DNA from: Chloroflexota bacterium
GTDB lineage: Bacteria > Chloroflexota > Dehalococcoidia > UBA2247 > RBG-13-53-26
Assembly (NCBI GenBank): GCA_016876035.1
Contig: VGOE01000003.1
Location: forward strand, 1 to 62,933
DNA length: 62,933 nt
Direction: 5' to 3'
Below are positions 36,921 to 49,734 of the stretch, piece by piece. A program made the position numbers and the translations under genes. The notes beneath the pieces were generated by a model. That model had not been told where the DNA came from. It saw only the letters and a list, made by a program, of their open reading frames with translations, and ran no database searches. The stretch's first letter is position 1; the number at the start of each line of letters is the position of its first letter.

Positions 36921-37511
36921 CAGTACGCGCCTAAGGCTCAACTCAAGGGGAACCGGCAGTTTCCGGATGGGGAGGACCCTGAGAAATACATGTAAGACAA
37001 TTTGTGTTCAGCAAGCCATCTGCCTAACTCCTGTTCCTGGCTGTGCCTTGAAGATTTGCTGCGTTTCGCGGGAAGCCCGGATGGGATGTTTACTTGTCAT
37101 TGCGAGGCACAAAGTGATATTGTTATGACAGTGGACTTGGTCAGTTTCATTACAAAAAGCTACGCGCCAGATAGGCTAGATTGGTGATTGAGATAAAAGT
37201 GTTCTTTGTTGCATCTCTATTATTACTGATTATTATCAAGGTCGTCTCAGGCCACTGGGGGCGATCACTGTACTTGAAGAACCTATGGTGGCACGCTGTA
37301 TCGCCTTGCTATCGACCAGAAAATCCTTATAAAAACCTTATAATTGCCCCTTGCATTTTTACGCCACCTTTATGATTTTGGGGTTACAATAGGAGCGTTT
37401 GACCAGGTCGGGAGGCAGTGTGTTTCCTTGGCCAGGAGCCGAAAGCATGCCATTACACGTTAGGTACTACTCAAGCTGGCGCAAATAGTTATCACATGAG
37501 GAGAGGGTAAA

Positions 37512-39500
37512 GTGGATACAAGCCAATATGATGAGCCTAAGATCGGGGTTTACGTTTGTCATTGCGGCACCAATATCGCCGGCAGTGTTGATGTAGGACA
37601 GGTAACTGAATTTGCCCGAGGGCTGGAAGGGGTAGTAGTATCCCGAGATTATAGTTTTGTGTGCTCTGATCCAGGGCAGAAGCTGATCCGGGAGGACATC
37701 CTTCAGCTAGGAATCAATCGGGTTGTGGTGGTAGCCTGTTCCCCTCGTCTACACGAGCAGACATTCCGCGGTGTATTGAAGGAGAGCGGGCTTAACCCCT
37801 ATATGCTGCAGCAAGCTAATATCAGAGAGCAGTGTTCTTGGCTTCATGAGCCAGGGGAGTCGGCCACTGAGAAGGCGAAGAGGTTGGTTAGAGCAGCAGT
37901 GAAGCGAGTTGCGCTGCATCACCCTTTGGAGCAGAGAGCAGTGCCAATTTTCCCCGCTACTCTGGTGGTCGGAGGCGGTATTGCTGGTATTCAGGCTGCT
38001 CTAGAGATCGCCAATTCCAACCACCTGGTGTATCTAGTGGAAAGGGAGTCCAGCATTGGAGGGCATATGGCGCAGTTCGACAAGACCTTCCCCACTCTGG
38101 ACTGCGCCGCGTGTATCCTCACCCCTAAAATGACTGACGTTGCCCGTCATCCTTACATCAGGCTGTTAACCTACAGCGAGGTGGTTGACATCTCAGGGTA
38201 TATAGGCAACTTCACCGTCAAGATCAAGCGTAAGGCGCGCTACGTGAATGAGGAAAAATGCACCGGCTGTGGTATTTGCCAGGAGAAGTGTCCGTGGACG
38301 ACATTAAGTGAGTTCGAGGTCGGCTTGAGTTTGAGGAAGGTCATTTATACCACTTCACCTCAAGCAGTGCCCAACATACCTGTTATTGATCGTGAGCGTT
38401 GTGTTTACTTCTCCAAGGGAACCTGCCGCGCCTGTGAACGCTTCTGTGAACCAAAAGCTATCAATTTCAAGCAGGAAGATATGTTGATAGAGCTGCAAGT
38501 TGGCTCTGTTATAGTGGCTACCGGATACGATACCTTTGAGCCTACCCGCGTCACGCAGTACGGCTATGGTAACTACCCCAACCTTTTCACCAGCTTGGAG
38601 TTCGAGCGGATGTGCAGCCCGTCCGGGCCAACCGGCGGTAAATTGAAACTAGCAGACGGTCGGGAACCACAGAGCATGGCCATTATCCATTGTGTAGGCA
38701 GCCGAGATAAGAATTTCAATGCCTACTGTTCTCAGATATGCTGTATGCATGCCCTGAAGTATTCCCACCTGTTCAAGGAGAAGACCGGTGGCGATGTCTA
38801 TCAAATGTATATTGATATGCGTTGCACGGGGAAAGGGTATGAAGAATTCTATGATCGGGTTCAGAAAGAGGGAGTCAACTTCGTCAGGGGCAAGGTAGCC
38901 AATGTCACTGACCGTGCCCTTGCACCTGAGGAGGAAGGAAAACTGATTGTTACCTGTGAGGATACCCTGTTGGGCAACATCGTCCGTGTCCCGGTAGATA
39001 TGGTGGTATTGTGCATAGCTGTGGAGCCGCGCAGGAATGCTGAGCAGCTAGCCCAAATATTTCGTTTGGGACGGGGCCAGGACGGGTTCTTCCTAGAGCG
39101 ACACCCGAAATTGGATCCGGTGGCTACCATGTTCGAGGGTGTATTTGTAGCGGGGTGTTGCCAGGGTCCTAAAGATATACCTCATACAGTGGCTCAAGCC
39201 TCAGCGGCCGCTGCTCGGGCTCTGGCTATGATTGCCCGAGGCAAAGTGGAAATTGAAGCAGTGACTGCTTCTGTTGATGAAAAGCGGTGCTCAGGATGCC
39301 GGTTGTGCAACGCACTCTGCCCATATGAAGCTGTCTCCTTTGATGAAGATGCCAAAGTGTCGCGGGTGTCTCAGGTTCTTTGTAAGGGGTGTGGTACATG
39401 TGCTGCGGCTTGCCCGAGCAACGCTATCTCCGTCCAGAACTTCACTCCAGCCCAGATCACAGCAGAAATTGAGGGACTGCTAGCCACGGTGAACGTCTAG
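37512..39500 (+). CDS. hdrA: Heterodisulfide reductase subunit A
   Basis: CHCGTNIAG, ACSPRLHE, NIREQCSW, GGGIAG, DKTFPTLDCAACIL, inserted 2x[4Fe-4S], SLEFER, HCVGSR...CS..CC, C-terminal 2x[4Fe-4S]. Confidence 0.95.
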   Translation: MDTSQYDEPKIGVYVCHCGTNIAGSVDVGQVTEFARGLEGVVVSRDYSFVCSDPGQKLIREDILQLGINRVVVVACSPRLHEQTFRGVLKESGLNPYMLQQANIREQCSWLHEPGESATEKAKRLVRAAVKRVALHHPLEQRAVPIFPATLVVGGGIAGIQAALEIANSNHLVYLVERESSIGGHMAQFDKTFPTLDCAACILTPKMTDVARHPYIRLLTYSEVVDISGYIGNFTVKIKRKARYVNEEKCTGCGICQEKCPWTTLSEFEVGLSLRKVIYTTSPQAVPNIPVIDRERCVYFSKGTCRACERFCEPKAINFKQEDMLIELQVGSVIVATGYDTFEPTRVTQYGYGNYPNLFTSLEFERMCSPSGPTGGKLKLADGREPQSMAIIHCVGSRDKNFNAYCSQICCMHALKYSHLFKEKTGGDVYQMYIDMRCTGKGYEEFYDRVQKEGVNFVRGKVANVTDRALAPEEEGKLIVTCEDTLLGNIVRVPVDMVVLCIAVEPRRNAEQLAQIFRLGRGQDGFFLERHPKLDPVATMFEGVFVAGCCQGPKDIPHTVAQASAAAARALAMIARGKVEIEAVTASVDEKRCSGCRLCNALCPYEAVSFDEDAKVSRVSQVLCKGCGTCAAACPSNAISVQNFTPAQITAEIEGLLATVNV

Positions 39501-39527: not shown

Positions 39528-39980
39528 GTGGCTGAGTTTGAACCCAAGATAGTTGCCTTTTTATGCAACTGGTGCTCCTATGCCGGAGCAGATTTGGCAG
39601 GGACTTCGCGCATGAAGTGCCTGCCTAATGTGATTTCTATTCGACTTATGTGCAGCGGAGGACTGGACCCTACTTACGTTTTGAAGGCATTCAAGGAAGG
39701 GGCTGACGGGGTCCTGGTTTGCGGTTGCAACCCTGGTGATTGCCACTACCTTGAAGGGAACTACAAAGCATTGCGGCGTGTCTCCTTGCTGCAGAGAATG
39801 CTGCCACACTTCGGCGTCGAGCCGCGGCGTCTCCAATTGCACTGGGTGTGCGCTTCCTGTGGCGATGAATTTGTTACTGTCGTTAACGAAATGACTAATG
39901 AATTGAAGAGGTTGGGACCAATCAAGCGCGAGAGTTGGATGCCAGCAGCAGAGGAACATCATGCAATGGCACCGGGCTAA
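39528..39980 (+). CDS. mvhD: MvhD-type [2Fe-2S] subunit (copy 1, extra cysteines)
   Basis: FEPKIVAFLCNWCSYAGAD, MCSG, GADGVLV.GC.PGDCHY..GN. Confidence 0.92.
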   Translation: MAEFEPKIVAFLCNWCSYAGADLAGTSRMKCLPNVISIRLMCSGGLDPTYVLKAFKEGADGVLVCGCNPGDCHYLEGNYKALRRVSLLQRMLPHFGVEPRRLQLHWVCASCGDEFVTVVNEMTNELKRLGPIKRESWMPAAEEHHAMAPG

Positions 39981-40155: not shown

Positions 40156-40821
40156 ATGACAAAGTGGCAGTGTGTGCAATGTGGTTACTTCTTCGACGGA
40201 ACGAGACCGCCGGAACCATGCCCTGGCTGTAAGTCAGCTTGCAGCTACACCGATGTCACCTGCTATCGCCCTGAATGTGGTGGCCCCGTGAATGCCGACC
40301 CTATGCTTCTGGGCATGATTACCAAGCGTACTGGATTAGCCGCCCCTCTACGTCCCTCACAGACGGCTGCCCCGCAGGAGGTAGTCTATGCAGAGAAAGT
40401 GAGCAAGGAAATCCTATTTCAGGGGCTGAGCGAAAAGGAGATACAGCAGGTATTGGCCACTGGTGAAATTAAGACCTATGAACCTGGCGATGTCGTGTTT
40501 AAGGAAGGCGCTGAGTCAGTGCATATCTACATTGTCGAGCAAGGGAAACTGGCCGTGCTGGCTCCAGAAGGGAAAACCGCCTATCTAGCTTCAGACGGAG
40601 ATGTTCTTGGTTGGTCGAGTTTGATGCTGCCCTACAAGCGGACTGCTTCAGCCAACGCCCTGGAAAAAAGCCGTGTTGTTGTCATCGACCACACCAAACT
40701 GCAAGACTTTTGCGCCCAGAACCCATCTATAGGCTACAAGATCACGCAAAACGTCGGGCGGATTATGGCTGCCAGGATGAGGACTGCCAAAGCGATGTCA
40801 GTGGATTTGGTCTACGGCTAA
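40156..40821 (+). CDS. Rubredoxin-like Cys domain fused to cyclic-nucleotide-binding domain
   Basis: WQCVQCGY...PPEPCPGC...DVTCYRPECG, then LFQGLSE.E, Y..G.VVF.EG, G.VLGWSSL...RTASA; no HTH. Confidence 0.75.
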   Translation: MTKWQCVQCGYFFDGTRPPEPCPGCKSACSYTDVTCYRPECGGPVNADPMLLGMITKRTGLAAPLRPSQTAAPQEVVYAEKVSKEILFQGLSEKEIQQVLATGEIKTYEPGDVVFKEGAESVHIYIVEQGKLAVLAPEGKTAYLASDGDVLGWSSLMLPYKRTASANALEKSRVVVIDHTKLQDFCAQNPSIGYKITQNVGRIMAARMRTAKAMSVDLVYG

Positions 40822-41004: not shown

Positions 41005-42153
41005 ATGAATGCAGTCGTGCCCTATAAGGAAGCGGTGGACGCTGTAACAGAGGCAGGCGGTGAAGCGCTGAAGCAATGCTATCAGTGCGGTCTGTGTACT
41101 GGCATCTGCCCCTGGAATCTGGTTAGAAGCTTCCCCACCCGCAAGCTAATCCATCAGGCACAGCTCGGCGTAGTCGACTTCGAAGGTGAGGACACCTGGA
41201 TATGTGCCACCTGCCGGGCCTGCGTGGTCCGCTGCCCACGCGAGGTAGCCATCATCGATATTATGAAAGCCCTGCGTGGAGTGATAGTGGAGATGGGAGC
41301 TGGCTACTGTCCCGAGTCACTCCGGGTCACATTGAAAAACATCGCCGGTGCCGGTAACCCGCTGGGAGAAGCTCCCGAAGATAGAACGGCTTGGACAAGG
41401 GACCTGAAGGTGAAGACCTTTGCCAAGGGCACCAATGTACTGTATTTTTCCTGCTGTATCCCGGCCTATGATCCTAACATCAGAAGGGTAGCTCGTGCCA
41501 CAGCCAACATCCTTAACAAAGCAGGTGTTGACTTCGGCATCCTGGGTTCCAAGGAAAGCTGCTGTGGCGAAAGCGTGCGCAAGGCGGGAAACGAAAGCCT
41601 TTTCCAGAAGCTGGCGCAGAGCAATATCAGTGCTTTTGTCGATAACGATGTCAATAGAATCGTGGTGAGCTCGCCTCACTGCTATCATTCTTTCAAAAAC
41701 GAATATCCTGCGCTGGGGGGCAAGTTTGAAGTAATGCACTTCACTCAATATCTGGCACAGCTTATCCGTGATGGTAGACTCAAGCTAACCAAAGAAGTCA
41801 AAGCAAAGGTCACCTATCATGATCCATGTTATCTTGGGCGTCACAACGATGTGTACGACGAGCCGAGAGAGGTCTTAAGAAGCATCCCCGGACTGGAGCT
41901 GGTAGAGATGGCCGACCATCGTGAAAATAGCTTTTGTTGTGGTGGTGGTGGCGGAAGGATTTGGATGGAGACCAAGAAGGGAGAGAGGCTTTCCGACCTC
42001 AGGTTGGAGCAGGCTGAAGCGACGGGGGCGAGTATATTGGTGGCTGCCTGTCCCTACTGCATAGCTAATTTTGAGGATAGCGTATTAACAATGGACAAGG
42101 GCGCTGCTATTCAGGTTAAGGACATCTCGGAATTGGTTCAAGAGGCAGTGTAA
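41005..42153 (+). CDS. HdrD/GlpC-like Fe-S protein (2x[4Fe-4S] + two CCG domains)
   Basis: CYQCGLCTGICP, CATCRACVVRCP, ESCCGE, SPHC, YHDPCYLGR, CCGGGGG, ACPYC. Confidence 0.9.
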   Translation: MNAVVPYKEAVDAVTEAGGEALKQCYQCGLCTGICPWNLVRSFPTRKLIHQAQLGVVDFEGEDTWICATCRACVVRCPREVAIIDIMKALRGVIVEMGAGYCPESLRVTLKNIAGAGNPLGEAPEDRTAWTRDLKVKTFAKGTNVLYFSCCIPAYDPNIRRVARATANILNKAGVDFGILGSKESCCGESVRKAGNESLFQKLAQSNISAFVDNDVNRIVVSSPHCYHSFKNEYPALGGKFEVMHFTQYLAQLIRDGRLKLTKEVKAKVTYHDPCYLGRHNDVYDEPREVLRSIPGLELVEMADHRENSFCCGGGGGRIWMETKKGERLSDLRLEQAEATGASILVAACPYCIANFEDSVLTMDKGAAIQVKDISELVQEAV

Positions 42154-42268
42154 GCTGTCTCTTGGGTCAGATCGATATTACCAGTTGCAGCTACCACGGG
42201 GAATGCGAGACAAACCTTAGCAAAGACCGCAAAACGGTTTAGCCTATTTGGCGGAATGCGTATTATGC

Positions 42269-42676
42269 ATGTCTAAGAGAAAGATCGCTCTGATGGACTT
42301 CGACCAACTGATTGGAAGGTTGAGGTTCAACCTGGAGAGTGCCAGGAGCGCGATAGAACATGGGGACAGCCGAGAACCCGAGGATCGGGAAGGTCTCCGA
42401 GACTATGTTAACAAGATCGAAGAGAGTATCCAAAAGCTCGAGCTGGCAAAGCAGCTATCACAAAAAGGCAGGCTGAATGGAGAAGATGTAGGAAGGGCGA
42501 TGAGTATTACCTGCTTCGGAAACATCGGCTACTGCTGCGGGCTGAAGAAAGCATGTGTTTGGAGAGATGCTTGCCGCCAAGCCTTGGGGATAGATGATGA
42601 TACTTACACTGAAGTCAAAGAGGCAGTAATTCAGGACATTCTCGAGCGTGCTAATCGGATGGACAGCGGAACTTAG
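42269..42676 (+). CDS. Hypothetical protein with Cys-rich motif resembling one repeat of methanogenesis marker domain 9
   Basis: TCFGNIGYCCGLKKACVWRDACRQALGIDDDTYTEVK; N-terminal coiled-coil-like region. Confidence 0.6.
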   Translation: MSKRKIALMDFDQLIGRLRFNLESARSAIEHGDSREPEDREGLRDYVNKIEESIQKLELAKQLSQKGRLNGEDVGRAMSITCFGNIGYCCGLKKACVWRDACRQALGIDDDTYTEVKEAVIQDILERANRMDSGT

Positions 42677-42850: not shown

Positions 42851-44641
42851 GTGTGGATAACTGAAGATAAAGGGGTTGCCCGTGTTGAAGAGGCAGTAAA
42901 GCAATTTCTGCCACCTTGCCAGATCAAGTGTCCTATCAATGAAGATATCCAGCGCACAAATGTGCTCATCTCACTCCTTCCGGAGGATCTGGACTCGGCA
43001 AGGGAGGGGATTATCCAGATAAGCGATCACCTCTATGACAAGAACCCTTTCTTCAACATCTGCGGTTACATTTGCGGATTGTGTGAACTTGAGTGCAATT
43101 ACAAGATCAAGGGAGGTGCAGTCAGAAGAAGACTCCTCAAGAGATTTTTGTCTGATGTCTACACCTATCATCTCCCTGAGAAAAATGAACTGAATATCGT
43201 TAAGGACAAGGAGAATGTGGCTGTCATAGGCGGTGGGCCGGGTGGCTTGATGTGCGCCTATATCTTGAGCAAGAAGGGGTATAGGGTAACCATCTTCGAG
43301 GCGTCCAACCGCCTGGGTGGAGCGCTGTGGCTGATACCGAGCTATCGTTTACCCGAAGCTGTTTTGCAGACAACGCTGAACAATCTGATCAGGATTGCCG
43401 CTCTGGATGTTAGGTTTGGTGCAAAGCTGGGTGAGGGCAGGCTGACGATAGATAGGCTTAGAAACGAAGGTTACAGGGCAATTTTTCTGGCAAAAGGGAC
43501 ACCTTACCCCAGAGTGCTGACGTTCGATGGAGAGACAGTACCAGGGCAGGATCTTTCTGGGGTAATGTATGGGCATACTCTTCTTTACGAGGTTAGCCAC
43601 GGCAACATCGGGAGGGACTATTTTGAGGGGAAAAAACTGATAGTCATTGGCGGTGGGAACGTAGCCTTTGACGTTGCCAGAACGGCAAAGCGATTGGGAG
43701 GCGATGTGACTATCGTCTGTCTGGAATCTGAGGACAAGACCTCCAAGGACGGTATTCCTGCTGACGATGAAGAAATTACCGCGGCGTGGGAAGAGGGGTT
43801 AAGGATCGTTTATTCCCGTGGTGTACAGAAGATTATCGGGCAACATGGGAGATTCAAGGGCCTTGTCTGTCCGAGGTGTGTCGGTGTGTTTGATGAGACC
43901 GGATTCAACCCCAAGTTTGATTGCAGCGACTGCATTGATCTTGAAGGGGACACGCTCGTAATCACGGTAGGACAGATACCCGATAGGGCCTTTCTAAATA
44001 GAGAAGGCCTTCTGGATGAGAAAGGCCGACTTGTGGTAGACCCCATCACACTGCAGAGCTTGAGGAGAGGCTTCGTGTTCATAGGCGGGGATGTGAGGAG
44101 GATCGGCTTTATGGTCGAAGCCATGAAGGAAGGCATGGTGGCTGCCGACTCCATAGAGAGGTATTTGAGAGGCCTGGATATGAGGGAAGGCAGGAAGAGG
44201 GAATATGAAGGCTATGGGATTCCTTTGAGGAAATCGTACAAGCCTGAGGTGGAAGTGGCCTGGATACCACCAGAAAAGAGGATGCACTTCCAACTGTTTG
44301 AGAAGGGCCTTACGTTGAAAGAGGCGATTGAAGAGGCCAAGAGGTGCCTCACTTGCGGCCCCTGTGTCTCGTGTAAGGCCTGTATATCGATTGGTTTCGA
44401 GAAGTCACTGTATGCTGTTGAAGTAGACGAGCAAAGATGTAGTGGTTGCGGCATATGCGTATATGCATGCAATTATGATTCAGCCAGGCTAAGAATGGTT
44501 GAAGGGAAGACCCTCTCTACCACCGATATGTTCAGATGCAAGTCGTGTGGTATGTGTGTCGTGGCCTGCCCTTCACATGCCAGGAAGCTGGTTGACGACG
44601 ATACTGAGCGAAGGATCGAAAGTGCGTTGGCAATTCTATGA
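42851..44641 (+). CDS. GltD/NfnB/SudA-like FAD oxidoreductase with C-terminal 2x[4Fe-4S] ferredoxin
   Basis: PPCQIKCP, ICGYICGLCELEC, IGGGPGG, IPSYRLP, IGGGNVAFD, EAKRCLTC, CSGCGICVYAC, CKSCGMCVVACP. Confidence 0.85.
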   Translation: MWITEDKGVARVEEAVKQFLPPCQIKCPINEDIQRTNVLISLLPEDLDSAREGIIQISDHLYDKNPFFNICGYICGLCELECNYKIKGGAVRRRLLKRFLSDVYTYHLPEKNELNIVKDKENVAVIGGGPGGLMCAYILSKKGYRVTIFEASNRLGGALWLIPSYRLPEAVLQTTLNNLIRIAALDVRFGAKLGEGRLTIDRLRNEGYRAIFLAKGTPYPRVLTFDGETVPGQDLSGVMYGHTLLYEVSHGNIGRDYFEGKKLIVIGGGNVAFDVARTAKRLGGDVTIVCLESEDKTSKDGIPADDEEITAAWEEGLRIVYSRGVQKIIGQHGRFKGLVCPRCVGVFDETGFNPKFDCSDCIDLEGDTLVITVGQIPDRAFLNREGLLDEKGRLVVDPITLQSLRRGFVFIGGDVRRIGFMVEAMKEGMVAADSIERYLRGLDMREGRKREYEGYGIPLRKSYKPEVEVAWIPPEKRMHFQLFEKGLTLKEAIEEAKRCLTCGPCVSCKACISIGFEKSLYAVEVDEQRCSGCGICVYACNYDSARLRMVEGKTLSTTDMFRCKSCGMCVVACPSHARKLVDDDTERRIESALAIL

Positions 44642-44656: not shown

Positions 44657-45076
44657 ATGGGGCATTATGAACCTAAGATAGTCTGTTTCTCGTGCAAGTT
44701 CGGCTGGGGATACCTGGGCGATGATGCTGCGCTCTCCCGCCAGATAAAGAACTGGATTCCTATAATTTGCTCCGGGAAGATTGATAGTACTCACATTCTG
44801 GACGCTTTCAAGCGGGGGGCTGACGGTGTTCTTGTACTCGGTTGTCCCGAAGGCAATTGCCATTACCAGGACGGCAATTTCGAGGCCAGGAAGAGGGTCT
44901 ATCTTCTCCAAAAGATGCTTGAGCCCTATGGAATAGAAAAGGAGAGGCTCCGCATAGTACTGTCAACGGATCCTGGTGGTACGCAGATACCGCAGCTTAT
45001 TAAGGAGATGAGTGACAGAATTGAAAAGCTTGGCCCACTGAAGAAGATAAAGGGCAAAGCTGCTCTAGTGGTCTAA
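44657..45076 (+). CDS. mvhD: MvhD-type [2Fe-2S] subunit (copy 2, divergent)
   Basis: YEPKIVCFSC, ICSGKID, GADGVLVLGCPEGNCHY.DGN, GIEKERL. Confidence 0.85.
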   Translation: MGHYEPKIVCFSCKFGWGYLGDDAALSRQIKNWIPIICSGKIDSTHILDAFKRGADGVLVLGCPEGNCHYQDGNFEARKRVYLLQKMLEPYGIEKERLRIVLSTDPGGTQIPQLIKEMSDRIEKLGPLKKIKGKAALVV

Positions 45077-45094: not shown

Positions 45095-46072
45095 ATGGCA
45101 GAGAAACCGAAGGTTGCTATTTGCTGGCTTGGGGGCTGTGGCGGCTGCGATGAAGCGGTGGTCGATATCAATGAGGTAATCCTGCGTGTTGTAGACGCCG
45201 TTGACCTGATACTCTGGCCAGTGGCGCTGGATTTCAAGTACCATCACATTGAGGCCATGAAAGATGGTGAGATCGCCTTGAGTGTGATCAATGGACATGT
45301 CAGGAATTCAGATCACAAAGAGATAGCGGAATTACTTCGCAGAAAGTCCCAGTTGGTACTCGCTTTTGGGGCTTGTGCCTGTTTTGGAGGAACACCTGGG
45401 CTAGCAAACTTGACCACCAAAGAGGACATCTTTAACTGGGTGTATCGTGATGCTCCAACCGTGGTTAACCCAAAAGGAAACCACCCTCAACCCAAAGTCA
45501 GTGTTGACGGGAAAGAATTAACGTTACCAGAATTCTACGAACACGTCTATGCTCTGAATCAGGTGATTGATGTCGACTACTACCTCCCGGGCTGCCCACC
45601 GCCTCCTGATCTAGTAGTCAATGCTATAACTGCTGTCCTGGAAGCCAAGCTGCCCCCCAAGGGTTCGACTTTGGCACCGCATAAGGCTTTGTGTGATACC
45701 TGCCCGCGAAACAAGACAAAACCGGCTAAGATTGCTATAAGTGACATCAAGAGGATTCATGAGGTTGAGGCTGACCCTAATTCCTGCTTTTTGGTGCAGG
45801 GGATACTCTGCCTGGGGCCCGCAACGCGCGCAGGCTGTGGGGAGGCTTGCATAGACATAAACATCCCCTGTCGTGGGTGTTTTGGCCCCGTGGAGGGAGT
45901 GGCTGATGCTGGGGCAAAGTTTGCTTCTGCCTTGGCGTCGATCATCGACGTAGAGGATGAAGAAGAGGTAAAGAAGAGTATCGACACGATTGACGATGTT
46001 ATCGGCTACTTCTATCGTTTTTCCTTACCCTCTTCCATTTTGGGCAAGAAAGATCTCAAGAAGACTATTTGA
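45095..46072 (+). CDS. mvhG: Group 3c [NiFe]-hydrogenase small subunit
   Basis: WLGGCGGC, GACA.FGG, YLPGCPP, CDTC, CF...G.LCLGPATR.GC...C.....PCRGCFGP. Confidence 0.92.
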   Translation: MAEKPKVAICWLGGCGGCDEAVVDINEVILRVVDAVDLILWPVALDFKYHHIEAMKDGEIALSVINGHVRNSDHKEIAELLRRKSQLVLAFGACACFGGTPGLANLTTKEDIFNWVYRDAPTVVNPKGNHPQPKVSVDGKELTLPEFYEHVYALNQVIDVDYYLPGCPPPPDLVVNAITAVLEAKLPPKGSTLAPHKALCDTCPRNKTKPAKIAISDIKRIHEVEADPNSCFLVQGILCLGPATRAGCGEACIDINIPCRGCFGPVEGVADAGAKFASALASIIDVEDEEEVKKSIDTIDDVIGYFYRFSLPSSILGKKDLKKTI

Positions 46073-46084
46073 GGAGCGCTGAAA

Positions 46085-47548
46085 ATGACCAGAAAAGTGA
46101 CCATAAACCCGATTACCAGGCTTGAGGGTCATGGTAAGATCGAAGTCTTCCTCGATGACAAGGGTGGGGTGAGAGATGCCTACTTTCAGGTGGTAGAGTT
46201 GAGGGGCTTTGAAAGGTTCTGCCTGGGAAGGCCAGCGGAGGAGATGCCGAGGATTGTTCCGAATATATGTGGCGTTTGCCCTACGCCGCATAACATGGCA
46301 TCCACAAAGGCACTGGATGACCTGTACGGCGTTGAGCCCACGCCGACTGCCAAGCTAATCAGGCAACTCCATTACAATGCCTTCTACGTGGAAGACCATT
46401 ACATCCACTTCTTCTTCCTGGCTGCACCCGATTTCGTGGTTGGACCGGACGCTGACCCTGCTGAGAGGAACATCGTCGGCGTAATCCAAAAGGTCGGGTT
46501 GGAGATCGGCGGCAAGGTGATCGATATCCGAAAAAGGTGCCGAGATATAATCAGGCTCATTGCCAGTAAGCCATGCCATCCCGAAGGTGGATTGCCCGGC
46601 GGAGTTTCGAGGGGAATCACTGCCGAGGAACGGGAATGGATACGCAAGACTGCTGACGATTCTGTGGAATTTGCCCAGTTTGCCCTGAAGCTGTTCAAGA
46701 ATGTTGTCCTTGATAACAAGCACTACCTCGATCTGGTACTTAGTGATGCCTACAAGCTACAGACCTACTACATGAGTCTTGTCGATGAGAATAAGAAGGT
46801 GAATCTCTATGAGGGTAAGTTAAGAGTCGTGGATCCTCGCGGAAAGGAACACGCCCTTTTTGATCCGCATGACTACATTGATTACATAGGTGAATGGGTA
46901 GAGCCCTGGACGTATATAAGGTTGACTCATCTGAGAAAGGTAGGCTGGAGCGGTTTGATTGAGGGTGATAAGACATCGCTGTACCGTGTTGGCCCTCTTG
47001 CCCGACTCAATGTAGCTGAAGGTATGGCCACGCCCCTAGCCCAGAAGGAGTATGAGCAGATGCATAAGACGCTGGGAGGCAGACCGAGTCACCATACCTT
47101 GGCTTTCCACTGGGCCAGACTGATCGAGGCACTTCAGGCTGCTGAAGATATGCAGAAAATTGCTAATGACCCCATGCTGACTGGCAAGGACCTGCGTAAT
47201 TTGAATTACAGGTTGAAGAAAGTTGGCGTCGGTTGCGTTGAGGCGGCTCGGGGAACATTGATCCATCATTATGAGACGGATGACAATGGAATAATAACCA
47301 GGGTGAACCTCATAGTGGCCACCCAGCACAATGCAGCCCCTATGTGTCTATCGGTGAAAAAGGCGGCTATGGAGTTCGTCAAGGACCACAAGGTGAAAGA
47401 GGGTATGCTGAACATGGTGGAAATGGCCTTCAGGCCTTACGACCCGTGTCTTGCCTGTGCGACGCATGCGCTTCCGGGTGAAATGCCCCTGAACATCAAT
47501 ATAAGGGACAAAGACGGCAGCATAGTCCAAACACTCAAGAGGCCGTAG
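46085..47548 (+). CDS. mvhA: Group 3c [NiFe]-hydrogenase large subunit
   Basis: PITRLEGH, ICGVCP..H, EA.RG.L.HHY, YDPCLACATH plus a cleavable C-terminal tail. Confidence 0.92.
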   Translation: MTRKVTINPITRLEGHGKIEVFLDDKGGVRDAYFQVVELRGFERFCLGRPAEEMPRIVPNICGVCPTPHNMASTKALDDLYGVEPTPTAKLIRQLHYNAFYVEDHYIHFFFLAAPDFVVGPDADPAERNIVGVIQKVGLEIGGKVIDIRKRCRDIIRLIASKPCHPEGGLPGGVSRGITAEEREWIRKTADDSVEFAQFALKLFKNVVLDNKHYLDLVLSDAYKLQTYYMSLVDENKKVNLYEGKLRVVDPRGKEHALFDPHDYIDYIGEWVEPWTYIRLTHLRKVGWSGLIEGDKTSLYRVGPLARLNVAEGMATPLAQKEYEQMHKTLGGRPSHHTLAFHWARLIEALQAAEDMQKIANDPMLTGKDLRNLNYRLKKVGVGCVEAARGTLIHHYETDDNGIITRVNLIVATQHNAAPMCLSVKKAAMEFVKDHKVKEGMLNMVEMAFRPYDPCLACATHALPGEMPLNINIRDKDGSIVQTLKRP

Positions 47549-47891: not shown

Positions 47892-48113
47892 ATGAAATAC
47901 ACTGTCATAATCGAGAAAGGTAGTGAATCGGGCTACGTGGCTTATGCTCCTGCCCTGAAGGGCTGCATCTCCCAGGGTGCAACTAGGGAAGAAACCCTGA
48001 GGAACATAAAGGAAGCCATTGAAGCCTATGTCGAAGCTCTGCTTGAGGATGGGCTGCCTGTCCCTACAGAGGTAGGCAAACATACTGTGGAGCTTGAGGT
48101 TCCCACTAGGTGA
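47892..48113 (+). CDS. hicB: HicB-family antitoxin (short, no DNA-binding domain)
   Basis: YVAYAPALKGCISQG.TREE.L.NIKEAI..Y.E.L; 73 aa. Confidence 0.9.
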   Translation: MKYTVIIEKGSESGYVAYAPALKGCISQGATREETLRNIKEAIEAYVEALLEDGLPVPTEVGKHTVELEVPTR

Positions 48114-48343
48114 CCAAGCTACCTCGGGGATTGTCTGGCAAAGAAGTGATCAAGGTGCTAGAGAGGGCGGGGTTCTATATCAAAAGGCGCAAGGGAAGCC
48201 ATGTTGTAATGCGCAGAGACAATCCTTTTACTCAGGTCGTAGTGCCAGACCATAATAATAAGAGCCTTGATACCGGAACGCTAGCGTGGATACTCGATGG
48301 GGCTAACCTATCAGTCCAAGAGTTTACAAAACTTATTAACTAG
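48110..48343 (+). CDS. hicA: HicA-family toxin (mRNA interferase)
   Basis: LSGKEVIK.L...GF...RRKGSH, VVVPDH, GTL..IL; GTGA overlap with hicB. Confidence 0.9.
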   Translation: MTKLPRGLSGKEVIKVLERAGFYIKRRKGSHVVMRRDNPFTQVVVPDHNNKSLDTGTLAWILDGANLSVQEFTKLIN

Positions 48344-48366: not shown

Positions 48367-49734
48367 ATGGTTGGGGCCACTTCTTGCTTTGAGTGCTGTC
48401 CGGACGCCACAAAGGTCAGTCGTTTCCGTTTCTCGCTGCCACCATCTGTGATGCGCTCTTTGTTCATCAACCCAGTCGTCCATGTAAGACAAGCCCACAG
48501 GACTAGACGGGCGGCAATCGCCGCCATAGCTGCCTTCGGGGCTATTCTGGCTGGTGTGTTCCTGATGTCGGCTGTCCATGATGCGGCACTTAGTGCGGTA
48601 CTTGGCACGGTGGCACTAGCTTGTCTTGGAGCTGTCATTGGCCCTTTTACGGGAGGCAATGAAGCAGAATGGATTAGGTATCTAGAGACGTTAGTGAGGA
48701 CTGAGAGAGACAGGCTACTGGCAATACTGAACACTATGGGAGAGGGAGTGGCTATCATTGGGCCAGACTACAAGATACGCTTTATGAATCCAAGCATGTT
48801 AAGAGAATTCGGCGACGGTGTCGGTAGCTATTGTTATAAGCATCTCCATGGCTTCGATGAGCCATGCGATGAGATGTGCAGGTTACGGGAGGTCATAATT
48901 GGTTCAACTGAGAGGTCGGAATATCACTTTCCAGACGGGAGAATATATGAAGTAGTATCGTCGCCCTTTGCTGATTCCGACCAGGTGTCTTGTATGCTGG
49001 CCACTTTCAGAAACATCACCCATCAGAAGCTGGTCGAGCTTGAGCTTGTCAAACTTAACCAGCTTAAATCAGAACTTCTATCCAATGTCTCTCACGAACT
49101 CCGATCACCATTGACCTCGATAAAGGGGATCATCAGCAGCCTGTTGCAAGAAGACATAGGGTGGGATAACGAGTCACGGAAGATGCTTTTGATTGGAATG
49201 AGCGAGGAGACGGATAGGTTGGCGAGCCTGGTTACCAATTTGCTCAACATGAGCAAATTGGATGCCGGTGTTTGGGGGCCAGAGAGGGATCGCTGTAGTG
49301 TCCCGGAGATTGTCACTGAGACGCTGGAACGCCAGAAGTGGGTTAGCAAGGATCATATATTTGAAACCGAGTTCGCCCCGGACTTACCAGAAGTCTTCGC
49401 CGACTCTAACCAGATAAAGCAAGTTTTGATCAACTTGCTGGAGAACGCGGTGGCTTACTCCGAGGAAGGAACTAAGATAGTGGTCGAGGCAAAGAGGATC
49501 AATAACGAAGTGGAGGTGACCGTATCTGACCAGGGTGTTGGAATCCCGCCGGGGGAGCTGGAGAAGATATTTGACAAGTTCTATCGGGGTACACAGAAGC
49601 GTCGGCGTCCTGGGGGTACCGGGCTGGGCCTGGCTATTGGCAGAGCCATTGTTCTGACCCATGGCGGGCGCATATGGGCCGAAAGTGAAATCGGCCGCGG
49701 CTCCACCTTCCATTTCACTTTGCCGGCTATCTAG
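48367..49734 (+). CDS. Membrane PAS-domain sensor histidine kinase (orphan); start uncertain
   Basis: Two TM segments, PAS-like region, SHELRSPL, QVL.NLLENA, DQG.GI, GTGLGL. Confidence 0.88.
   Translation: MVGATSCFECCPDATKVSRFRFSLPPSVMRSLFINPVVHVRQAHRTRRAAIAAIAAFGAILAGVFLMSAVHDAALSAVLGTVALACLGAVIGPFTGGNEAEWIRYLETLVRTERDRLLAILNTMGEGVAIIGPDYKIRFMNPSMLREFGDGVGSYCYKHLHGFDEPCDEMCRLREVIIGSTERSEYHFPDGRIYEVVSSPFADSDQVSCMLATFRNITHQKLVELELVKLNQLKSELLSNVSHELRSPLTSIKGIISSLLQEDIGWDNESRKMLLIGMSEETDRLASLVTNLLNMSKLDAGVWGPERDRCSVPEIVTETLERQKWVSKDHIFETEFAPDLPEVFADSNQIKQVLINLLENAVAYSEEGTKIVVEAKRINNEVEVTVSDQGVGIPPGELEKIFDKFYRGTQKRRRPGGTGLGLAIGRAIVLTHGGRIWAESEIGRGSTFHFTLPAI

Follow-up and report, generated by a model that had tools for sequence, protein, structure and literature searches.

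The window analysed here is the whole of a 62,933-nucleotide stretch of DNA from a Chloroflexota bacterium of the Dehalococcoidia (GenBank assembly GCA_016876035.1, contig VGOE01000003.1, positions 1 to 62,933). Its forward strand carries a putative electron-bifurcating Hdr-Mvh gene cluster in the order HdrA-MvhD-Rd/cNMP-HdrD-[ORF]-GltD-MvhD-MvhG-MvhA, where Rd/cNMP stands for a protein with rubredoxin-like and cNMP-binding domains and ORF for the small open reading frame that is the subject of this work (42269..42676, + strand). The ORF, taken from the list of open reading frames and their translations, is complete and codes for 135 residues followed by a stop codon. Its product is a single-repeat relative of the Cys-rich domain of methanogenesis marker 9 and COG4008. 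An earlier inspection of the same DNA (hereafter the sequence-only reading) had proposed that half of a 'methanogen-only' marker 9 domain lies here between HdrD-like and GltD-like genes. Pfam confirms both neighbours: an HdrD-like gene with a 2x[4Fe-4S] ferredoxin domain (Fer4) and two CCG domains (41005..42153, + strand; Pfam CCG 2e-37), and a gene for a GltD/NfnB-like NAD(P)H-flavin oxidoreductase with a C-terminal ferredoxin domain (42851..44641, + strand; Pyr_redox_2 8e-29, Fer4_20, Fer4_7).

The ORF is a real gene. It starts with the ATG at 42269; the mechanical start of the frame is a TTG at 42248, which would add seven residues, and the ATG is supported by the N-termini of the homologues, which read MS[KR]K... 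or MAEL.... The translation holds the string quoted in the sequence-only reading, ...ITCFGNIGYCCGLKKACVWRDACRQALGIDDDTYTEVKEAVIQDILER..., and has 44 homologues with an identity of 50–78%. Ratios of nonsynonymous to synonymous substitution (dN/dS) of 0.14–0.34 against these homologues show purifying selection, and AlphaFold2 models the product with a pLDDT (predicted local distance difference test) of 91 and a pTM (predicted template modelling score) of 0.81. The nearest genomes to the window are two metagenome-assembled genomes of Dehalococcoidia, the window itself contains bacterial chromosomal and housekeeping genes (DnaK, ClpB, RecD2), and its DNA is also found in lake-water metagenomes. 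Scans of the window for tRNA genes and Rfam families gave no matches.

Profile comparisons carry the relationship to marker 9. Residues 79–126 of the product (42503..42646, + strand), a Cys loop followed by two helices in the model, align with positions 61–108 of the 109 positions of TIGR03277 (methan_mark_9, NCBIfam) at an E-value of 1.4e-8 and 34.9 bits. This score lies under the curated cutoff of 96.2 bits since the alignment reaches only the model's second half, whereas the control protein P0174 scores 152.6 bits. In hhalign, the probability for the C-terminal domain of the ORF product is 98.8% with repeat 2 of archaeal proteins that have two repeats (44 columns, among them the first Cys; E 9e-17) and 98.1% with repeat 1; the two archaeal repeats give 98.9% against each other in a profile–profile comparison. 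The product has the repeat-unit signature C-x6-CC-x5-C-x2-R...LG...Y...K, homologous to repeat 2. The similarity suspected from the letters alone is therefore borne out, and so is the description of the ORF product as half of a domain: the match is confined to residues 79–126, and the N-terminal half gives less than 1% in hhalign against either repeat, so that a single repeat is present. The same figure rules out a decayed first repeat in the N-terminal half.

True marker 9 (TIGR03277, P0174) and the ORF product share the repeat C-x6-CC-x5-C-x-[WF]-R-D...LG...[DE]-Y...K followed by two helices, and neither has a Pfam or PDB representative. They differ in several respects. Marker 9 has two tandem repeats with eight conserved Cys, is fused to a Dus-like flavin barrel and comes from methanogens, whereas the ORF product has one repeat and five clade-conserved Cys, stands alone with no barrel, belongs to a bacterium of the Dehalococcoidia, carries a helical hairpin where marker 9 has repeat 1, and has an extra Cys, C102. 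The COG4008 architecture, two repeats with a C-terminal ribbon-helix-helix domain, is likewise absent, and Pfam finds no domain in the ORF product at E<=10, ribbon-helix-helix included. On these profile comparisons, the product is best called a single-repeat variant of the marker 9-type family. The bare similarity can be detected by routine annotation, since the JGI automatic pipeline already puts the COG4008 label on several bacterial homologues. It appears never to have been discussed in the literature. COG4008/marker 9 has been listed as a methanogen signature with the Pfam entry 'not found' (PMC3416665). In the literature searched, COG4008 and marker 9 occur in table entries only, a functional study of marker 9 was not found, and the text motif 'CX6CC' retrieves an unrelated retroviral envelope disulfide motif.

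The predicted model of the ORF product is all-helical: a hairpin of residues 11–30 and 37–64 is followed by a short helix (71–78), the Cys loop (79–96) and two further helices (97–106 and 110–133). The N-terminal helical region named in the sequence-only reading corresponds to this hairpin. It lies in an N-terminal half (residues 1–70; 42269..42478, + strand) that is amphipathic in the AlphaFold2 model and variable in the alignment: the median identity is 53% in the hairpin vs. 73% in the C-terminal domain, and the hairpin has insertions and deletions between subclades. The sequence-only reading had suggested that a homodimer could rebuild the two-repeat domain. Judging from the model, the amphipathic hairpin could dimerise; the high monomer pTM is equally compatible with its packing on the protein's own Cys domain.

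The Cys cluster reads C82-x6-C89-C90-x5-C96-x-W98-R99-D100-x-C102 (42512..42574, + strand; alignments A1, A2 and A3). Within the Dehalococcoidia clade the invariant residues are C82, C89, C90, C96, C102, W98, R99, D100, R103, D109, D110 and Y113. Across 147 divergent family representatives C82, C89, C90 and C96 alone remain invariant, K117 being nearly so; C102, invariant only in the Dehalococcoidia clade, is thus specific to it. In two-repeat proteins all eight Cys are invariant (alignment A4). This pattern of invariant Cys leads us to expect metal ligands. No Pfam family covers the module, and neither its sequence nor its fold, in the one-repeat or the two-repeat model, has a relative in PDB. 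A PDB sequence search with the family profile gave coiled-coil noise only (best E 0.095), Foldseek with the ORF model gave generic helical proteins (best E 0.43 in PDB and 1.1 in BFVD), and Foldseek with a two-repeat model against PDB found no fold relative (best E 0.36).

The HdrB/HdrD CCG domain (PF02754) has the tripeptide 'CCG' and the operon in common with the ORF product; the Cys spacing and the fold class differ. Homology of the repeat to the CCG domains of HdrD was ruled out, since hhalign gives 0.2% against the alignment of the cluster's own HdrD and no Pfam match appears at E<=10. The shared tripeptide is coincidental.

When 1.84 billion cluster representatives were searched exhaustively with a profile (E<=1e-3), a family of 180 clusters emerged. 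The majority of its members have 100–135 residues, with a helical N-terminus and one C-x6-CC-x5-C module, and many have a Cys-Pro after the last ligand. Five architectures were found: (i) an MJ0144-family Dus-like TIM barrel followed by two repeats, as in P0174, which is the true marker 9 because it is the sole one among the tested proteins to exceed the TIGR03277 cutoff; (ii) two repeats with a beta domain and a ribbon-helix-helix (COG4008; e.g., P0132), also present in Archaeoglobaceae; (iii) two repeats with a beta domain only; (iv) in Asgard archaea, an N-terminal domain, one repeat, a long low-complexity linker and a C-terminal zinc ribbon (P0143, P0216-P0254, with Baldr-, Frey-, Odin-, Njord- and Atabeyarchaeia labels); (v) the hairpin and one repeat seen in the ORF product. 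The term 'methanogen-only' used in the sequence-only reading has to be qualified: P0174 alone passes the cutoff, and Archaeoglobaceae, Asgard archaea, Dehalococcoidia and mobile-element-like contigs all have relatives below the threshold. Bacteria are now seen to have the repeat unit of a methanogen signature protein by itself and in one copy, and numerous small proteins encoded by archaea and their mobile elements have it too. New here are how large and diverse the single-repeat family is, the five architectures and the lack of a structural relative.

Searches of the family members with PHROGs and PADLOC gave no meaningful match, and tblastn of the ORF product and P0055 against 50,697 phage records gave none. 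A degenerate DNA pattern scan of IMG/VR returned 21 loci, of which 0/21 encode a family member by the hidden Markov model of the family. The N-terminus of one member, P0162, holds ...GIRDAQESRGLGDVYKRQ; its string DVYKRQ is what we take to be a translation of the Nextera mosaic-end GATGTGTATAAGAGACAG, so P0162 probably starts in adapter contamination.

COG4008 bears the label 'predicted metal-binding transcription factor', the module is C-terminal to a Dus-like barrel in P0174, and about half of the small relatives (53%) are basic, with an isoelectric point (pI) above 8. All three features would suit a nucleic-acid-binding helical module that replaces the tRNA-binding domain of Dus in true marker 9 and acts as a direct DNA- or RNA-binding transcription factor in the window. 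The clade of the window, however, is acidic: the pI is 5.5 for the ORF product and 4.7 for its C-terminal domain, with a median of 5.25 for the clade. Moreover, no fold similarity to a DNA- or RNA-binding domain was found in PDB, and in COG4008 proteins the ribbon-helix-helix already covers the DNA-binding role. We regard direct nucleic-acid binding by the ORF product as improbable.

The remaining genes of the cluster, all on the + strand, are as follows. HdrA (37512..39500) and a first MvhD (39528..39980) were assigned by Pfam. They are followed by the gene for the 221-residue Rd/cNMP protein (40156..40821; cNMP_binding 8e-17, RUBY_RBDX 7e-6), which has an N-terminal rubredoxin-like Cys knuckle and no detected DNA-binding domain, and which PADLOC matches solely through its cNMP domain. 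Beyond GltD lie a second MvhD (44657..45076; Pfam FlpD), an MvhG-like small subunit (45095..46072; Pfam Oxidored_q6) and an MvhA-like [NiFe] large subunit (46085..47548; Pfam NiFeSe_Hases). A histidine kinase gene stands 3' of the cluster (48367..49734, + strand), and a weak homologue of it has the same position in L002 and L038. It is possible that this kinase is part of the same regulatory layer as the ORF product, the linkage being putative.

The window proteins were mapped onto 30-odd related loci. Subclade 1 of the ORF homologues (66–78% identity) keeps the gene order of the window. In three of its loci a GNAT-like acetyltransferase gene of 150 residues, recognised by eye, lies between HdrD and the ORF (L038 1872..2324, L036 1293..1745, L002 825..1277). 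Subclade 2 (53–58% identity) has the order MvhG-MvhA-HdrD-HdrA-MvhD-Rd/cNMP-[ORF]-GAF, with no GltD in as much of the cluster as has been sequenced. There, in 6/6 loci with downstream sequence (L041 7402..8007, L042 7417..8022, and L043-L046), the end of the ORF shares 4 nt with a stand-alone GAF gene of 201 residues (GAF_2 1.5e-16). The GAF protein has a proline-rich tail, ...WPPPPPP, and neither the window nor subclade 1 has its gene; farther along, inspection by eye shows an ETF gene and CoA-transferase-like genes. Rd/cNMP is the gene most constantly found near the ORF, adjacent or one gene away in L003-5, L009, L038, L039, L041, L042 and L044-48; in L009 and L047 it adjoins the ORF on the opposite strand. 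Histidine kinases recur as well: in L014 a kinase gene overlaps the ORF start, and in L051 a kinase is directly 5' of the ORF homologue, with a GltD-like gene 3' of it. The association with Hdr/Mvh genes is more than a single case: two Dehalococcoidia subclades keep it although they arrange the genes differently. The linkage is real and lineage-specific, and it looks regulatory. The association of Rd/cNMP, the ORF and GAF or kinase genes in Dehalococcoidia Hdr-Mvh clusters is also new.

The same neighbourhoods bear on the idea that the ORF encodes a genuine small subunit of the Hdr-Mvh-GltD complex, an additional structural protein with Fe-S or zinc that would connect the HdrD-like module with the GltD-like one or pass electrons between the two. 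Such a subunit would be expected where the ORF is found in all subclade-1 loci, on the same strand and mid-operon between HdrD-like and GltD-like genes. The Hdr/Mvh location is kept in the second subclade, and five clade-invariant Cys in an Fe-S-rich context would suit the role. However, in subclade 2 the ORF is adjacent to neither HdrD nor GltD and stands at the end of the cluster with the GAF gene. It also diverges far faster than the subunits: in L001 and L037 it is 69–70% identical, vs. 90–93% for HdrD, GltD, MvhD, MvhG and MvhA, and the change is concentrated in the hairpin. The GNAT insertion alongside is tolerated, relatives as close as 50–55% identity function outside any Hdr context, and neither CCG nor ferredoxin domains are homologous to the ORF product. 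A structural or electron-transferring subunit is therefore unlikely.

Those close relatives form subclade 3 (50–55% identity, 113–115 residues), which lies between carA and carB with no Hdr context. The carA-carB interval is a hotspot (L006-8, L049, L050, L052, L053) with HicB, MNT/HEPN, PIN, Phd/ParE and restriction-modification genes. Directly 3' of the subclade-3 homologue are variable nuclease-like partner genes. A 121-residue partner has a borderline NucS_C match and is related to a 298-residue partner (E 1e-7), a 231-residue partner is unrelated to both, and in P0050 the Cys domain is fused to the 298-residue type. The L053 copy of the subclade-3 homologue appears frameshifted. Another relative, P0046 (117 residues, 42% identity, five-Cys motif), overlaps the start of a 264-residue proteasome-family gene, which is followed by a gene for an 840-residue sacsin-like/NOV_C protein that matches TmtA of the Tiamat system at E 1e-51 (defence-type loci L012 490..4244 and L013 1243..4997). 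Two small relatives with one repeat each are surrounded by numerous tiny open reading frames that have no annotation, as well as by genes for an integrase, an S24 peptidase, a MoxR-like ATPase/VWA pair and a TFIIB-like protein.

The stretches that encode three archaeal two-repeat proteins resemble viruses or mobile elements and contain integrase, PIN, Hjc and S8 peptidase genes. Archaeal two-repeat proteins such as P0132, P0203 and P0206 have a Cys module homologous to that of the ORF product. The ORF product differs in having no second repeat, beta domain or ribbon-helix-helix, and in its Hdr/Mvh rather than mobile-element context. At the loci examined, no Hdr/Mvh genes were found near the small single-repeat relatives or the archaeal two-repeat proteins. 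In the archaeal two-repeat loci L056-L060, nearly all open reading frames are without a Pfam match, and one of the contigs is 62.7 kb long; L056 and L057/58 appear to have a similarly ordered run of unannotated genes in common. These stretches may be archaeal viruses or integrated elements.

The sequence-only reading had linked marker 9 to the Fe-S biology of Hdr/Mvh. In the neighbourhood survey this stands for subclades 1 and 2, where co-location with hdr/mvh genes survives rearrangement, and fails for subclade 3, P0046 and the small and archaeal relatives; nor do the CCG domains provide a link by homology. The mobile-element and defence contexts, new for this family, raise another explanation, namely that the ORF is a portable antitoxin-like or small-regulator cassette derived from a mobile element, with no functional tie to Hdr/Mvh. 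It would account for subclade 3 in a hotspot of toxin-antitoxin and restriction genes with exchangeable nuclease-like partners, for P0046 coupled to a proteasome-family gene beside TmtA, for the small and two-repeat relatives in integrase-bearing, virus-like stretches, and for a HicBA pair at the end of the window's own cluster. Against it, retention in two subclades of differing gene order at 53–58% identity points to selection on the linkage, and the Hdr-linked clades show no obvious toxin partner, the coupled gene being a GAF sensor. We consider a cassette with no tie to the cluster quite unlikely.

The reading that we prefer, with a probability of about 0.4, is that the ORF product is a metal or Fe-S sensor or adaptor recruited to regulate the Hdr-Mvh cluster, and not a catalytic or core subunit. 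Regulation rather than catalysis is suggested by the sensor-type character of its most constant neighbours (Rd/cNMP, GAF and histidine kinase). Across the change of gene order, the ORF stays with Rd/cNMP and has no fixed neighbour among the enzyme subunits, so the constant companion is of the sensor type. The much faster divergence of the ORF relative to the enzyme genes, and the tolerated GNAT insertion beside it, also argue for a regulatory role over that of a core subunit. The region around the ORF is loosely organised, with gaps of 115 nt to the HdrD-like gene and 174 nt to the GltD-like gene and the GNAT insertion in L002, L036 and L038. In other proteins a ribbon-helix-helix DNA-binding domain is joined to this module (P0132, alignment A4), an arrangement typical of one-component regulators. 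The module also has unrelated partner genes in toxin-antitoxin and defence islands and is therefore portable, not an Hdr-specific part.

According to the sensor/adaptor model, the ORF product would be a small, acidic, soluble, all-helical protein whose 46-residue C-terminal module binds metal via C82, C89, C90 and C96, while C102 would act as a clade-specific fifth ligand or as a redox partner. As to the nature of the metal, we slightly favour an Fe-S cluster over zinc, by two analogies. In dihydropyrimidine dehydrogenase a ferredoxin domain is joined to a flavin barrel, which parallels the 8-Cys domain of true marker 9 after its Dus/DHOD-like barrel; the second analogy is the Cys-Pro that many family members have after the last ligand. 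The hairpin would mediate self-association or partner binding. The protein would belong to the sensory and regulatory layer of the Hdr-Mvh cluster in this Dehalococcoidia lineage and would work jointly with the Rd/cNMP protein and, in the sister subclade, with the GAF protein. In this way redox or metabolite state would be coupled to the expression or activity of the electron-bifurcating hydrogenase/heterodisulfide reductase.

Functional analogues may be sought among WhiB-like (Wbl) and SoxR/Rrf2-type Fe-S sensors. Like them, the ORF product is small and all-helical, has no enzymatic domain, contains four closely spaced Cys with a C-x5-C among them, and would have to work via a partner. The likeness is one of function and not of descent: the ORF product has no sequence or fold similarity to these sensors, it has an adjacent CC where Wbl has C-x2-C, and its cluster binding is putative.

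Several points weigh against the sensor/adaptor reading. The argument from the gaps is weak because the first half of the cluster also has gaps of 175–183 nt. The acidic charge makes direct DNA binding unlikely, so the output would have to pass through a partner protein. In subclade 1 the ORF lies on the same strand in mid-operon, as expected of a subunit gene. Adjacent Cys rarely both ligate one zinc ion. No RNA runs with DNA of the window were found, the DNA matches being to lake-water metagenomes only.

A small, Cys-rich, acidic protein encoded inside an Fe-S/NiFe enzyme cluster could also be an assembly or maturation factor, e.g., a chaperone of metal or clusters that would serve the hydrogenase or the non-cubane clusters of the HdrD-like protein. 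Operons of this type often include genes for maturation factors. Yet the ORF product has no similarity to a known maturation family in Pfam or NCBIfam, its relatives occur with no metalloenzyme nearby, and signalling accounts better for the ribbon-helix-helix fusions and for the coupling with GAF or kinase genes. A maturation factor is, in our opinion, very unlikely.

With these results the opaque 'marker' becomes a testable 46-residue module whose neighbourhoods point to sensing or regulation, and in Dehalococcoidia attention is drawn to a conserved, putatively sensory trio (Rd/cNMP, the ORF product, and GAF or a kinase) on a putative electron-bifurcating Hdr-Mvh system. In the literature searched, no description was found of how this system is regulated. 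A broader proposal can be formulated, in which the module is a new metal or Fe-S fold that serves as a portable redox sensor in at least five archaeal and mobile-element architectures including marker 9, and in which its hairpin-dimerised single-repeat form, recruited by Dehalococcoidia, combines with Rd/cNMP and GAF into a new three-part sensor that controls the Hdr-Mvh hydrogenase; this we regard as doubtful. The practical value of these results is moderate, as the host organisms are uncultured and the function is one that we infer.

Several minor features of the cluster may be added. A promoter and terminator scan gave counts at the level of shuffled sequence and nothing usable near the ORF, and the gap upstream of the ORF contains only two short inverted repeats. 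The obvious place for a promoter and operators is the region of ~590 nt 5' of hdrA (36921..37511), which has no open reading frame longer than 64 residues; a promoter-like match lies at 37094..37123, and such matches occur in this region at chance frequency. Between mvhA and the histidine kinase gene are a HicB-like antitoxin gene (47892..48113, + strand) and a HicA-like toxin gene (48110..48343, + strand), which overlap by 4 nt. Their identities were read from the translations, and the HicB of the window is 46% identical to the product of the Pfam-annotated HicB-like gene beside the subclade-3 homologue in L006-8 and L052.

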